Shown one piece after another: positions 22,460 through 39,642 of a stretch of 44,682 nt of DNA. The translations under genes were made by a program, and so were the position numbers. A model generated the notes under the pieces. The model had not been told where the DNA came from and ran no database searches. It saw only the letters and a list, made by a program, of their open reading frames with translations. This DNA is from a phage. The stretch lies in sequence record PX123008.1, one strand, 5' to 3'. Numbering within the stretch: position 1 is the first letter of the stretch; each line of letters begins with the position of its first letter.

Positions 22460-22539
22460 GGTATCATCTCCTATATTTGGTTGAGTTTTAGTATTACACC
22501 GCTCGATCAAGAATGCAACCAATTTACGAGGATTTAGCT

Positions 22540-25150: not shown

Positions 25151-25180
25151 ACTATAGTGCAACCAACCTATTGGTTGCAA
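25151..25180 (-). promoter_or_regulatory. sigma70-like promoter (TTGCAA-N18-TATAGT) overlapping a palindromic TGCAACCAA-N4-TTGGTTGCA site
   Basis: hexamers and the inverted repeat at 25158..25179 read directly. Confidence 0.5.
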
Positions 25181-26823: not shown

Positions 26824-26852
26824 AATATAATGCAACCAATATGATTATGCAA
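26824..26852 (-). promoter_or_regulatory. sigma70-like promoter (TTGCAT-N17-TATATT) with two ATTGGTTGCAT copies
   Basis: hexamers read directly; motif copies at 26831..26840 and 26848..26857. Confidence 0.5.
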
Positions 26853-35556: not shown

Positions 35557-35583
35557 AAAGAGGCCCGCTAATCTGCGGGCCGG
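35557..35583 (-). terminator. rho-independent terminator
   Basis: minus-strand GGCCCGC-agattag-CGGGCC followed by TCTTTTT. Confidence 0.5.
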
Positions 35584-35589
35584 AATATA

Positions 35590-36102
35590 TTAATCTTCCA
35601 GTTCGAAATAGGTTTCGACGATTTCTTTTAACTCGGTGTGGAAGTCTTCGACGTCGTCATCTTCCAGCTTGGCGATTGATTTGATCTCGAACGATTCCAG
35701 CAGGTCGTCGAATTCGTCGTTCGCGTCGTCGTCATCACCACCGGCAATAATCGCGGCATACTGTTTGATTTCGTCGCGCATCTCCGCCAGCGGATCGGCA
35801 TCTTTCTTACCTTTGCCTTTCGCCGGTGCTTTCTTAGCCTTAGCCGGTTTTTCGTCTTCGGCGTCTTCGTCGTCGTCATCTTCTACGACTTCTTTTTTGG
35901 ACTTACCTTTCGCCGGTGCTTTTTTAGTTTTCGCAGGTGCTTCGTCTTCAGCGTCGTCATCTTCGACAACTTCCTTTTTGGCCTTAGACGGCTTCTTGTC
36001 TTCCTGCTTACCAACTGCAGCGCCAACGGTTTCATAATGCTTTGCAATGGTTTCCAGTGCTACGACGCCGCGAGTGATCAGGTTTACGATTTGTTCGAAC
36101 AT
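35590..36102 (-). CDS. acidic tandem-repeat protein, first gene of the leftward early operon
   Basis: 170 aa from ATG 36102 with GGAGATATACC RBS; two ~30-aa repeats (KKEVVEDDDAEDE...APAKGK) and a strongly acidic C-terminus; an in-frame ATG at 36282 has a weak RBS. Confidence 0.5.
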   Translation of the reverse strand: MFEQIVNLITRGVVALETIAKHYETVGAAVGKQEDKKPSKAKKEVVEDDDAEDEAPAKTKKAPAKGKSKKEVVEDDDDEDAEDEKPAKAKKAPAKGKGKKDADPLAEMRDEIKQYAAIIAGGDDDDANDEFDDLLESFEIKSIAKLEDDDVEDFHTELKEIVETYFELED

Positions 36103-36338
36103 GGTATATCTCCGATTGGTTAAGTTTAGGTGTCGGCAGTTAACTTCGTCGGTGGCCTTAACATATTGCCAGGTTACGCGTTCTCCCGTTCGGGTAGTGG
36201 ACCTGGTTATATAATCACGGTTGGGAATCCTGACACTTCGATCCGGCCCCTGCGTTGCCCCTCTCCAGTTTGCGTCCTGCATCCTGTCGACGGAGTGAAT
36301 GATAGATTGGTTGCAGGATGGGTGTCAACAACTAATTT

Positions 36339-36400
36339 CAAAAAAAAGCGCCGAGGCAAAATGCGACGGCGCTAACCAATAAGAGACAATGAGACGAGAA
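36339..36400 (-). ncRNA. candidate small RNA (~60 nt) with its own promoter and terminator
   Basis: minus-strand TTGAAA-N16-TAATAA promoter at 36402..36431; terminator AGCGCCG-loop-CGGCGCT plus T8 at 36339..36373; no ORF. Confidence 0.3.
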
Positions 36401-36443
36401 TTATTATTACACGCGTGCGCGCCCGTTTCAATATCCAAAGGAT

Positions 36444-36472
36444 TTGACACCGTGCGGTTTTGGGTGTAGTTT
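36444..36472 (+). promoter_or_regulatory. sigma70-like promoter (TTGACA-N17-TAGTTT) for the HTH gene
   Basis: hexamers read directly ~30 nt upstream of the GAGGA RBS. Confidence 0.45.
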
Positions 36473-36503
36473 CGTTGGTCATTAACCAACTGAGGACAGA
36501 GCA

Positions 36504-36833
36504 ATGAATGTAAACGACGCAATCGAAATGTTAACGAAGACTGTTTGCAGTGAGACAAGCCGGTCATGGGCTTACACCGATGCCGTGGGGGCGGTGTTAT
36601 TTGAAATCGAACGACTGCGGCTTGCCGAAAAAGAATTGCGCGCCAGGCTGGAACTACTCAATGGTACGGCAGCCAGCAAGCTGCAAAAGCACAATGAAGA
36701 AATGGAAGAATACAAAAAACAGGTTATTCGTTTGCGCGATGAGGGGAAGTCATGGGCGATGATCGCCGAGCTAACCGGAATTAATCAGAGCACCGTGCGA
36801 TCCTGGGTACGCAATAATAAAACCTCTAAGTAA
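36504..36833 (+). CDS. helix-turn-helix DNA-binding protein
   Basis: 109 aa, GAGGA RBS; C-terminal HTH-like segment GKSWAMIAELTGINQSTVRSWVRN preceded by a coiled-coil; directly upstream of the primase-helicase gene. Confidence 0.55.
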   Translation: MNVNDAIEMLTKTVCSETSRSWAYTDAVGAVLFEIERLRLAEKELRARLELLNGTAASKLQKHNEEMEEYKKQVIRLRDEGKSWAMIAELTGINQSTVRSWVRNNKTSK

Positions 36834-36843
36834 GGCAACGGCA

Positions 36844-39108
36844 ATGAGCTTAATTAAATTCGCAGTAACACGACCCGCTAAAAAAGGCGAAAAAGCCAGG
36901 GCGGAAAACTTCCAGATGACCACCGATGAGTTTTTCGAATTTATCAAAGATGCGAAAGAAATCTCCTCGGTGCATATCAACAAGACGGAAGATAAAGCCG
37001 AGTATGCGCGCCGCAAGCGTAAGGCCGATGGCATCGTGGCGTATACCAGTGACGGATTGCGTCGTAAGACCAGTGCGGTGGACCGCTCGATCCTGTTCTT
37101 TGATATTGACCGCACAGACACCCGCACCCTGCGCCGCTGCCGTAAGGCGTTCATCGACGCGGGTCTGGAACACGTATTTCACACCACCACCGGCGATCGC
37201 CACCCGCTGAAGGGCGGCACGCGTTGCGCCCGTTTCCTGGTGCTCACTGACAAGCCTGTACCGGCTGAAGACCTGGGCCGCGTCCAGTATGCACTATTAC
37301 ACCAACTCGGCCTGTCAGATGTGGACTTCGATGATTGCACGAAAGACACAAACCGCCTTATGTACCTGCCTCACCAGCAATCGGTTGTTAAGTGTCACTA
37401 CGGCAAACGTGCCCGCGTCCGTCGTCTGCTTCGCCTGGCGGATAAGCTGGGAGTGAAAAAAGAGGAAGTACGCCGCGAATTAACCCAGGGCGATGACGGC
37501 GTGGCGGACGGCATTCTGGATTGGTGCTTCCAGGCAGGATTCGAACCGCTGTCGTCCGGTCGTGGTTATGAAGTGCCGTGCCCTAACGAACACCTGCACA
37601 GCGGCGAAGGGTCCACCGCTATCATGGTTAAGGATGGCGAGATCCGTTTCAAGTGTATGCACACCGGCAACGAGTGTTGCTCGGAACTGAATAGACACCA
37701 GCACCTGGCGCTACGTCTTATCGGGATCCCGGACCACCTGAACGTCGAACCGCACAACATGTCCCGCAAGCAAATCGCCGCCATCCTTCCGGGACTGGAC
37801 GACGAGGAAGTGGAATCGTGCTATGAACATATCGTTGATGCTGTTGGCGACGGCGAAGAATACGGCGTGTGCACCGATGCGGATCTGGATAACGAGCCGG
37901 TAGCGCTGTTTAGCAAGCACGACCCGATCATCGAGGGGCTGATTAACTTTAAATCGACCTGGTATCTTGCCGGTGAGTCGAACATCGGTAAGTCGTTCTA
38001 TGTGCTGGGCCAGATGGCGTCCGTATCTGCCGGTATCCCGTTTGGCGGTGCGAAGGTCGTCCAGTGCCATAACTTCTATTTCGACGCGGAAGGTGGTGAA
38101 GCCTCCAACCAGCGTAAGGAAGCATTGCAGATCAAATATGAGCACGACCTGGACAAGCTGCACATTATCGATCTGCAATCACGCGGCTGGGATATCACCA
38201 GCAAATCCGGCTTGCGTGAAGTTATCAGCTTCATCAACCGCACCGCTAACGGCGAACCGGTTGGCCTGGTGGCGTTCGACTCACTCAACCAGACTGTTGC
38301 GCTGCGGTCCGCCGATGCGAAGCCGTTCGACGAGAACAACGCCAGCGATATGGGCGAAGTGGTCAAAGCGCTGAAGGCCATCGCGGAAAATACAGGCGGC
38401 AGTGCGGGCGTCATCCACCACCCGGCGAAAGGTGCAAACGGCAGCAGAACGCCACGCGGGTCCGGCGCGCTTCATGGTGCTGTCGATTCTGCGTTCTTCC
38501 TGGAGCAACCGGACGACAATCAGCCCGGCCAATTGAACCTGTATCACGAGAAGGCACGTAACGGCATCAAGCAAGCGCCGCGCGGCTTCGTCCTGCTCAA
38601 GTGCAAGGTTAAGGTGGATCTCCGCAAGTCCGAAGCGTTCGAAGCCCACCAGTCCGCCAGCACCGGGCCGGACTTCGGCGATGTGGTTGCCGGTTGGGAC
38701 GTCAAGCCAATCGCATCCACGCCACGCGACGAGACTCTTTACCTCGTACCGGTCGCCCTGGCACCGTTCGCTATCGAACAGGCAAAGGCCGCTGGCAAAG
38801 CAGCAGTTAAGGAAGAGAACGCCGCAGGACCGCGCAACGAAAAAGAGAAAGTGCTTTATGCGGCGCTGGAAAAACTGATGGAAGATAACCCGGACCATAC
38901 CGGATTCAGTAAGTCGGCAATTGTCCGCCAGGCTGGACTGGCGAAAGGCGGCACATCGACGAAGGCAATCGACGATATGGTCGAGCGCGGCGTACTCGGT
39001 TTTTATACAGATCCGCACACCGGGGCCATCTATGGGTCGTCTAATATCGTCATAAAAACGAATATACCCATCACGCTTTCGGCGACCGATGACGACCTGA
39101 AAGATTAA
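36844..39108 (+). CDS. primase-helicase (AEP-type primase-polymerase domain + P-loop helicase domain)
   Basis: 754 aa; N-terminal ILFFDIDRTD acidic motif; central Walker A LAGESNIGKS and Walker B-like VAFDSL. Confidence 0.75.
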   Translation: MSLIKFAVTRPAKKGEKARAENFQMTTDEFFEFIKDAKEISSVHINKTEDKAEYARRKRKADGIVAYTSDGLRRKTSAVDRSILFFDIDRTDTRTLRRCRKAFIDAGLEHVFHTTTGDRHPLKGGTRCARFLVLTDKPVPAEDLGRVQYALLHQLGLSDVDFDDCTKDTNRLMYLPHQQSVVKCHYGKRARVRRLLRLADKLGVKKEEVRRELTQGDDGVADGILDWCFQAGFEPLSSGRGYEVPCPNEHLHSGEGSTAIMVKDGEIRFKCMHTGNECCSELNRHQHLALRLIGIPDHLNVEPHNMSRKQIAAILPGLDDEEVESCYEHIVDAVGDGEEYGVCTDADLDNEPVALFSKHDPIIEGLINFKSTWYLAGESNIGKSFYVLGQMASVSAGIPFGGAKVVQCHNFYFDAEGGEASNQRKEALQIKYEHDLDKLHIIDLQSRGWDITSKSGLREVISFINRTANGEPVGLVAFDSLNQTVALRSADAKPFDENNASDMGEVVKALKAIAENTGGSAGVIHHPAKGANGSRTPRGSGALHGAVDSAFFLEQPDDNQPGQLNLYHEKARNGIKQAPRGFVLLKCKVKVDLRKSEAFEAHQSASTGPDFGDVVAGWDVKPIASTPRDETLYLVPVALAPFAIEQAKAAGKAAVKEENAAGPRNEKEKVLYAALEKLMEDNPDHTGFSKSAIVRQAGLAKGGTSTKAIDDMVERGVLGFYTDPHTGAIYGSSNIVIKTNIPITLSATDDDLKD

Positions 39109-39183
39109 ATTTTGCGCGCGTTGGTTGCCGATATGGGAATTCCCATATCGCTAAAAGATTAATTTGTGCGCGCGTTGGTTGCC
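39101..39183. repeat. imperfect ~29-bp direct repeats bracketing a perfect 22-bp palindrome
   Basis: aagattaaattttgcgcgcgttggttgcc (39101..39129) and aagattaatttgtgcgcgcgttggttgcc (39155..39183) flank cgatatgggaattcccatatcg (39129..39150); the first repeat includes the primase stop codon. Confidence 0.85.
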
Positions 39184-39250
39184 ATTTTGAGTGTTTTTAG
39201 TTGGTCGCATTGGTTGCCGTGTAGTGTGAATATAATGAATAGTTATGCAA

Positions 39251-39430
39251 TAAAACTGCATAAACTAAGCGGGACAGAAAGCGGGACAAACAAGGGGCGG
39301 GACAAAGCGGGACAGCACCCCCTGTCCCGCCCGGATGGCGCGGCCTGGAGAGGAGCGGGACAAGCGGGACAAAGCCCAGTCTTTCAGACTAGACGGGGGT
39401 CAACGGCCCCCCTCGTCTGAGACTGAATAA
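39251..39430. repeat. iteron cluster B: 6 direct and 1 inverted GCGGGACA copies plus the conserved ~60-bp terminal hairpin
   Basis: GGGACA at 39271, 39283, 39299, 39309, 39357, 39366; TGTCCC at 39323; 39366..39430 nearly identical to 12264..12327. Confidence 0.85.
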
Positions 39431-39585
39431 AATCCGGAGATTGCAAAATACACGGCAGCATGATGCGAAGTGCGGTCGCGGATGAACTAGGCAACCAATG
39501 CTAGTTGCATTATGCGGAGTGGAAAACGCAGTTTGCAGTTACAGCAGATAGCGATCAACTTTTTCATGCGCGTGATTAATATTGG

Positions 39586-39614
39586 TTGCATTCACCCCGG
39601 CACCCTGCTATATT
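39586..39614 (+). promoter_or_regulatory. sigma70-like promoter (TTGCAT-N17-TATATT) with ATTGGTTGCA copies and a conserved leader
   Basis: hexamers read directly; leader GGTTGCACACCAACATGAGGA then ATG at 39643. Confidence 0.55.
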
Positions 39615-39642
39615 GGTTGCACACCAACATGAGGACTGAACA

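Follow-up and report, generated by a model that had tools for sequence, protein, structure and literature searches.

A conserved, previously unannotated small RNA gene predicted between the divergent early operons of Dhillonvirus phages

Our analysis of the DNA of an E. coli phage points to a real, unannotated phage small RNA (sRNA) gene, situated between two divergent early operons, whose mechanism we infer. The analysed DNA (hereafter the window; 44,682 nt, sequence record PX123008.1) comprises all or nearly all of the genome of a Dhillonvirus, one of the HK578-like virulent siphoviruses of E. coli, and a 2-kb piece of it spanning the RNA locus matched 176 phage records with a top identity of ~95-96%. 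Judged by its sequence and that of its relatives, the locus is likely to hold a functional RNA gene. The fuller reading, in which host sigma70 would transcribe an early RNA of ~56 nt that pairs with the TIRs of the flanking first genes, falls a little short of being probable. The gene is previously unannotated, in that we found no Rfam family, annotation or paper covering it, and literature searches on Dhillonvirus, HK578 and SECphi4 turned up no transcript mapping, no transcriptome of the genus and no description of an RNA at this position.

To place the locus in its genomic context, we transferred the annotation of phage welsh onto the window. In the resulting map, structural genes are on the plus strand as far as ~21 kb, genes for replication and recombination and methylase genes form a leftward block on the minus strand between 36102 and ~24.5 kb, and a rightward block on the plus strand, starting at 36504, encodes a 109-aa HTH protein, a helicase-primase, small genes and the lysis genes. 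The RNA locus lies inside the 400-nt divergent region between these two blocks, flanked by hyp33 (ATG at 36102, minus strand) and HTH34 (ATG at 36504, plus strand).

A promoter scan identified the promoter of the RNA gene, P1, on the minus strand, with the -35 hexamer TTGAAA at 36426..36431, a 17-nt spacer and the -10 hexamer AATAAT at 36408-36403. A TG two bases upstream, flagged by the same scan, makes this an extended -10 (TGT-AATAAT, 36403..36411), and the site scores 10/12. P1 coincides with the sigma70-like promoter that an earlier, sequence-only reading had proposed as TTGAAA-N16-TAATAA, which is the same site shifted by one base. Directly upstream of the predicted start, G 36395, lies a variable discriminator (36396..36402); the start itself was placed 8 nt past the -10 from its spacing to that element. 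From here a non-coding RNA of ~56 nt is predicted to extend along the minus strand (36340..36395; GUCUCAUUGUCUCUUAUUGGUU-AGCGCCGUCGCAUUUUGCCUCGGCGCU-U7), carrying AUUGGUUAGC and no AUG. Its first 22 nt (36374..36395) form a pyrimidine-rich 5' tail that is unpaired in both the MFE and the centroid fold and is a candidate seed. The tail is followed by a terminator hairpin (36347..36373), in which AGCGCCG (36373-36367) and CGGCGCU (36353-36347) form a 7-bp outer stem around a 13-nt loop that contains a 2x2 internal loop and a 3-bp inner helix, and by a U-run (36340..36347) of 8 residues in the window. Both the strong intrinsic terminator and the short ORF-less transcript predicted by the sequence-only reading are thus borne out at the sequence level, the lower bound it had given for the terminator, 36339, being one base too low.

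The fold energy of the RNA was -16.7 kcal/mol (z = -2.8), and only 1 in 200 shuffled sequences folded as well. A standard terminator scan had missed the hairpin only because it limited loops to 8 nt; the depositors of phages WF5505 and CS16 had annotated it as a terminator. On both strands of the whole 44.7-kb genome we counted only two hairpins (dG <= -10) that abut a T-run of at least 7, and only four sigma70-like sites scoring at least 10/12. A member of the promoter set and a member of the hairpin set share a strand here, the promoter ending 55 nt before the hairpin, an arrangement whose chance of arising by accident is about 0.01 by a hand estimate from these genome counts.

We next asked how widely the locus is distributed. 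The 62-nt stretch was found in 155 phage records at a coverage of at least 80%, 152 of them at an identity of at least 95%, and practically all Dhillonviruses carry the RNA gene. When IMG/VR and metagenomes were scanned with its core sequence, an invariant 18-mer, matches came only from Dhillonvirus-sized contigs. The same 18-mer gave five isolated matches in bacterial genomes of unrelated taxa, which we take as chance. Conservation in related phages, which the sequence-only reading had named as a check, is therefore extensive, with an invariant -10 and a near-invariant tail.

Column identities were calculated only from loci gathered without the core pattern, since loci retrieved with it are biased. 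In this set the -35 element reached 0.985-1.0, the -10 block, which is invariant in all relatives, 1.0 and the 22-23-nt tail 0.98, while the six bases between the -10 and the tail (36397-36402) averaged 0.68 and the adjacent HTH34 coding sequence reached 0.84, with 0.72 at third codon positions. The conserved block opens at the predicted +1, G 36395, as would be expected if the transcribed sequence matters. Among 27 distinct alleles, variation was confined to the pre-start bases, two loop positions, the length of the U-run (8-14), Opt212 and the Ioannina/LM40P1 clade. Within the tail, GTCTCATTGTCTCTTAT was invariant among the loci gathered without bias, the only exceptions nearby being a 5-nt duplication in Opt212 and, farther 3', a 1-nt deletion in the Ioannina clade. 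Together these values show, at the level of sequence, that promoter, terminator and tail are under stronger purifying selection than the neighbouring coding DNA. As separate observations, the Opt212 duplication is a tandem one (TTGTC) inside the otherwise invariant tail, and the terminator T-run varies from 8 to 14 across relatives in the manner of a slippage-prone homopolymer.

The hairpin itself also showed signs of maintained pairing. In the Ioannina/LM40P1 clade the stem AGCGCCG/CGGCGCU is replaced by AUCCCCG/CGGGGAU, amounting to two double compensatory changes, and one A-U pair of the inner helix has become G-U. In the hairpin alignment 100% of cells were paired, compared with 36-58% in slid controls, and two pairs had changed on both sides. 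Since only one clade contributes this covariation and the observed values were reached by 22 of 500 shuffles, we regard it as supportive and not decisive.

Two open reading frames can be read across the locus, a 26-codon frame on the plus strand (36389..36469) and a 36-aa frame on the minus strand (36372..36482), raising the alternative that the region encodes a small protein. The plus-strand ATG at 36389, offered as an alternative by the sequence-only reading, does exist and is preceded by the RBS-like AAGAGAC, and the minus-strand frame is annotated as a coding sequence in phage GeorgBuechner. In relatives, however, neither frame holds. The plus-strand frame is frameshifted (LLLHACAPVSIS versus YYYTRARPFQY), shortened to 4 or 19 codons or changed near its end, and the minus-strand frame is frameshifted, truncated to 7-15 aa or deprived of its start. 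Because indels of 1-2 nt are tolerated within both frames and both are frameshifted in relatives, the locus is non-coding, and a small protein here is barely credible. The GeorgBuechner entry bas16_0049 (window 36372..36482, minus strand; L003 1381..1491) places a 'hypothetical protein' across both the RNA gene and its promoter, and further GenBank records likewise list hypothetical proteins beneath this stretch. Recognition of the RNA gene therefore corrects existing annotation, in which spurious small proteins have been called over it in several records.

We also compared the window with the Rfam 15 covariance models. The whole window gave no match at the gathering threshold, and in E-value mode the region 36050-36550 yielded hits of 11-19 bits against thresholds of 43-72; this holds for the RNA gene as well as for a structured leader described below. 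A sub-threshold match to DUF2693-FD on the plus strand (36281-36319) was set aside as not meaningful.

Given the crowded arrangement of signals in the divergent region, the RNA could be a by-product of transcriptional architecture, with the terminator shielding the leftward operon and its promoter from upstream or antisense transcription, and P1 serving the rightward promoter as a decoy or as a partner coupled through supercoiling. These two promoters are indeed placed back to back, their -35 elements 12 bp apart, with the rightward promoter lying beyond P1 and firing away from the small RNA. P2, the promoter of the leftward early operon (36299..36328, minus strand; TTGACA-18-TATCAT, 11/12), which adjoins the RNA without belonging to it, begins 12 nt past the U-run of the small-RNA terminator. 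All three promoters were annotated by the depositors of the HK578 GenBank record. Moreover, Jilinvirus-type phages carry an intrinsic terminator equally far upstream of that same structured leader and have no small RNA unit. Against this explanation, nothing else in the region is as conserved as the 22 nt between promoter and hairpin, whereas the six pre-start bases vary, and insulation needs no specific sequence there. There is also no gene upstream on the minus strand, and therefore nothing else for the terminator to stop. That the RNA is such a by-product we consider improbable.

The location of the locus likewise suggested a link to DNA replication, in the form of a primer RNA or of transcription that activates an origin next to the helicase-primase gene, with the invariant block acting as a DNA or R-loop element. 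The cumulative GC skew has its minimum at ~35-36.5 kb, at the locus, and the replication genes begin 110 nt away; lambda oop RNA, too, was once proposed as an origin primer. The skew minimum coincides, however, with the point at which gene orientation switches. This accounts for the minimum just as well, so that the skew is uninformative as evidence for an origin. We saw no iterons and no AT-rich unwinding element here, the invariant block is single-copy, and the strong terminator with its 8-14 U speaks for RNA release. An origin-associated transcript is, in our estimation, quite improbable. The tail block being unique in the genome, it is also not a repeated operator.

Returning to a functional small RNA, we propose that the locus is a stand-alone gene, that P1 would be transcribed by host sigma70 and that the RNA would be made immediately on infection. 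It would then act through base pairing of its 22-nt unstructured tail; whether it is a base-pairing regulator we judge to be evenly balanced. The plus-strand complement of the tail consists of UAACCAAU-AAGAGAC-AAUG and so reads like a ribosome-binding site, which makes the tail an anti-TIR sequence. All three genomic copies of TAACCAAY fall within 375 nt at this locus: one lies 5 nt upstream of the hyp33 GGAG, one directly upstream of the HTH34 GAGGA, and the third lies opposite the RNA tail as its complement. Descent from a former gene start could explain why the anti-RNA strand resembles real TIRs.

The best candidate targets would be the TIRs of the first gene in each divergent early operon. 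At hyp33, the candidate target UAACCAAUCGGAGAUA (36107..36122, minus strand) covers the Shine-Dalgarno sequence of the gene. The predicted duplex with the tail has an energy of -17.2 kcal/mol and comprises 8+7 bp around a single C-U mismatch (15/16 nt); it stops 5 nt before the AUG and was equalled by only 1 of 1000 shuffled tails. At HTH34, the second candidate target, UUAACCAACUGAGGACAGAGCA (36482..36503, plus strand), offers about 11-13 nt of complementarity and a duplex of -16.7 kcal/mol, an energy reached by 33 of 1000 shuffled tails. The HTH34 duplex ranged from -15 to -20 kcal/mol in relatives, with -16.4 in the Ioannina clade, and complementarity to both flanking TIRs is kept in all clades. 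The suggestion of the sequence-only reading that the RNA pairs next to ribosome-binding sites of phage genes thus survives in altered form: the tail is complementary to UAACCAAY and the Shine-Dalgarno sequence of both flanking first genes, and it is not the GCAACCAAU elements that provide the match.

To rank these sites we used TIR-restricted and ungapped scans, as a sliding RNAduplex scan of the genome allowed long internal loops and proved too noisy. The mean duplex energy of the tail was -12.5 kcal/mol for annotated TIRs and -9.2 for genome windows. Across the 89,318 positions of the ungapped scan, the hyp33 site was among the top three non-self sites and the best of any TIR, with two non-TIR sites one point above it. 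By duplex energy, hyp33 ranked only 7th and HTH34 8th among 52 TIRs. The hyp33 target block UUAACCAAUCGGAGAUA is invariant in relatives and variable on both flanks; its sole substitution, a C to U in HK578, falls on the one base left unpaired in the duplex. The Opt212 duplication leaves 17 nt of pairing with hyp33 intact, and in the Ioannina clade a change of GGAGAUA to GGAGACA converts a G-U pair to G-C. The invariant 5'-most GUCUCA of the tail is left unexplained by the hyp33 duplex.

We additionally looked for compensatory co-variation between tail and targets in the divergent Ioannina clade and found none. The 1-nt deletion in this clade makes both duplexes 2-4 kcal/mol weaker, and although both partners have changed, pairing is not restored (-13.4 kcal/mol). 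The tail of the window in fact pairs with the TIRs of the Ioannina clade better than the clade's own tail does, so that the non-cognate combination exceeds the cognate one. Given this lack of restored pairing and the 7th rank among TIRs, the target model is plausible and specific, and it is one that we infer. That the TIRs of hyp33 (36122-36107) and of the HTH regulator (36482-36503) are the targets we consider somewhat unlikely.

If pairing does take place at these sites, it would cover the Shine-Dalgarno sequence and lower translation as the RNA accumulates, and the outcome might be a feedback or timer on the earliest phage proteins. In its most extended form, the proposal holds that one constitutive early sRNA would throttle the first cistrons of both divergent operons at once as an anti-ribosome-binding-site molecule, acting on the highly acidic protein to the left and on the HTH regulator to the right, and would form a genus-wide RNA timer of the early-to-middle switch beside the protein/operator circuit (GCAACCAAT); in this form we think it unlikely to be correct. 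Host mRNAs may be additional or alternative targets.

A real RNA could also be directed at the host, its CU-rich, anti-Shine-Dalgarno-like tail targeting host mRNAs or the molecule sponging a host sRNA or RNA-binding protein. Host-directed phage sRNAs share this architecture (bioRxiv 10.1101/2024.10.31.621285). Near-absolute invariance of the tail throughout the genus would fit a target that evolves independently of the phage, a host gene for instance, and the tail and the phage TIRs are without covariation. Conversely, a search of all complete E. coli genomes returned no long match, either as copy or complement, a result that by our estimate excludes only matches of roughly 20 nt or more, and conserved complementarity to the two flanking TIRs is already present. 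A host-directed function appears unlikely.

The sequence-only reading had very tentatively proposed a different pairing partner, namely a recurrent element of phage mRNA leaders, GCAACCAAU, to which the AUUGGUUAGC segment of the RNA would bind. A recurrent element does exist: AACCAAT occurs 17 times in the genome against 5.35 +/- 2.4 expected, and the consensus GCRACCAAB 26 times against 3.3 +/- 1.7. GCRACCAAB sites include 6411, 6425, 22515, 25159/25170, 26832, 26849, 29779, 29791, 33411, 33427 and 36306, with further sites at 39120-39217, 39491, 39581, 39612, 40340, 43040 and 43063. Almost all intergenic gaps contain copies, many of them paired or arranged as a palindrome (25159-25178). Both orientations relative to local genes occur, those at 26832, 26849 and 29791 lying on the plus strand inside the minus-strand block, and at three promoters, P2 (36306-36314), 25170 and 33427, the motif ends 0-1 nt ahead of the -10. 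The copy in the P2 spacer, GCAACCAAT (36306-36314), is fully conserved. Occurrence in both orientations together with placement in promoter spacers is the behaviour of a DNA operator and not of an RNA target; the sequence-only reading was right about the recurrence of the element and mostly wrong about the target. GCRACCAAB is probably the operator of a phage DNA-binding regulator, and the HTH_23 / sigma70-region-4-like protein encoded at 36504-36833 is a candidate for its binder.

For the pairing itself, AUUGGUUAGC and GCAACCAAU could form 7+2 bp with one bulge, and some sense-oriented copies of the motif are near Shine-Dalgarno sequences, as at 22515-22523. Apart from being independent of orientation and sitting in or next to promoter hexamers, however, the motif would face a seed whose GC is locked in the terminator stem. 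The Ioannina clade has lost one U within AUUGGUU yet retains GCAACCAAT at P2, and in the complementarity scan only one motif copy, 6427 (score 23), gets to the top. None of the 26 genomic matches to the GCRACCAAB consensus falls inside 36340-36431; the motif-like copy of the RNA gene itself, GCTAACCAAT on the plus strand (GCUAACCAAU, the strand opposite the RNA), is off consensus. Leader pairing between AUUGGUUAGC and GCAACCAAU is thus largely refuted by motif orientation, and we hold it to be highly improbable as the mechanism of the RNA. Seven of the motif copies lie in a gene-free region of 530 nt after the helicase-primase gene (39108..39640), which also contains a perfect 18-bp palindrome, ATATGGGAATTCCCATAT, at 39131..39148; this region could be a regulatory hub or an origin.

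The predicted RNA has the build of a minimal enterobacterial base-pairing sRNA, that is, an unstructured 5' tail, a Rho-independent hairpin and a U-tail of at least 8. The 3' binding module of Hfq is reportedly a GC-rich terminator hairpin followed by at least 6-7 U, as described by Otaka and Ishikawa et al. Several features of Hfq-type sRNAs were found here: a promoter of its own with a predicted discrete short transcript, at the sequence level; a GC-rich hairpin and U-run, with 8-14 U in all relatives; and a conserved single-stranded seed in the form of the unpaired tail. In contrast, the only opposite-strand ORF is not conserved, so that the small RNA is not cis-antisense and falls outside the class of OOP and Sar.

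The lambda OOP RNA is 77 nt long, is transcribed from the promoter pO, ends at an intrinsic terminator and, as a true cis-antisense RNA, overlaps the 3' end of cII. The RNA described here resembles it in being short, constitutive, non-coding and terminator-ended and in lying in the part of a siphovirus genome devoted to early regulation and replication, where OOP represses a neighbouring early gene by pairing. Unlike OOP, it overlaps no conserved gene or known opposite transcript, and its candidate targets would be reached in trans, over distances of 220-270 nt and about 90 nt. The two RNAs are dissimilar in sequence, no Rfam family matched, and the phage is virulent. P22 Sar, an RNA of ~69 nt antisense to the ant ribosome-binding site, is also a small phage RNA with its own sigma70 promoter and intrinsic terminator, and it occludes the RBS of an early gene, as is proposed here. 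Sar, however, is encoded opposite its target with perfect complementarity, whereas complementarity here is partial (15/16 and about 11-13 nt) and the loci are separate.

A closer architectural match is provided by lambda PreS, LPR2, StxS and VP882 VpdS, Hfq-dependent sRNAs of temperate phages with experimental support, which are trans-acting and terminator-ended and regulate host and/or phage mRNAs at TIRs in the lytic cycle, PreS acting on dnaN (bioRxiv 10.1101/2024.10.31.621285). Like PreS, StxS and VpdS, the RNA is phage-encoded and has the terminator-ended architecture of trans-acting Hfq-type sRNAs; unlike these and LPR2, it belongs to a virulent genus, is unrelated in sequence and is known here from comparative evidence only. 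To date, nearly all demonstrated regulatory sRNAs of phages come from temperate ones, such as those encoding PreS, StxS and VpdS, and the present locus is a clean, genus-wide candidate in a virulent group, the first well-defined sRNA candidate that we could find for Dhillonvirus. As its ends and seed are defined and two specific targets are predicted, it is directly testable, and its carriers include phages that are already laboratory models, namely the BASEL phages GeorgBuechner, PaulFeyerabend and KarlBarth, and SECphi4.

Finally, the divergent region contains a second RNA candidate. Between the P2 start (about 36292) and a point about 30 nt short of the ATG at 36102, the 5' leader of the leftward operon includes a putative structured RNA of ~160 nt (36291..36132, minus strand). 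It is missing from some Dhillonviruses and is shared with Warwickvirus and other Drexlerviridae, Jilinvirus and a Pseudomonas phage, in 172 phage records in total. In five other phages whose annotation we examined, it occupies a gene-free gap in the orientation of the flanking genes, and aligned copies have a -10-like hexamer 7-9 nt upstream. An alignment of 11 distinct sequences, which was hand-anchored and fitted to the structure, supported 38 pairs in 8 helices, with 97% of cells paired compared with 76 +/- 1.5% after shuffling (0/500) and 31-44% in slid controls; 19 pairs had changed on both sides (0/500 shuffles). Long invariant unpaired blocks (GGAGAGG, AACGCAGGGGC, AAGUGUCA, AGAACGC and ACCGACGAAG) suggest a ligand-binding, catalytic or protein-binding core. 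The genes downstream are not homologous to one another, and the leader is therefore not specific to one gene family. A possible role as a cis-antiterminator gained little support, a downstream terminator being present in only 3 of 8 lineages. Common to at least three unrelated phage groups and absent from Rfam, the structured leader may outrank the small RNA as a lead.

The leader also bears on the annotation of hyp33, for which a long form (230 aa, start at 36282) is used in some records, including GeorgBuechner bas16_0048. The short start, ATG 36102, has a conserved Shine-Dalgarno sequence. The extension (36103..36282) crosses the structured RNA, which is absent in some Dhillonviruses, and it is therefore almost certainly untranslated and an annotation artefact. 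The protein encoded by hyp33 (35590..36102, minus strand), the first early protein, is extremely acidic with lysine-rich repeats of the KKAPAKGK type and gave no Pfam match; a role as DNA mimic or in anti-defence is speculation. On the other side of the region, the 5' leader of the HTH gene contains an inverted repeat, GTTGGT-cattA-ACCAAC (36474..36490, plus strand), which overlaps the TAACCAAC copy and could be an operator or an RNA hairpin competing with small-RNA pairing. Right behind the first leftward gene or genes lies a further intrinsic terminator (35562..35581, minus strand; GGCCCGC-AGATTA-GCGGGCC followed by a T-run), so that the replication and recombination genes downstream need read-through or internal promoters.
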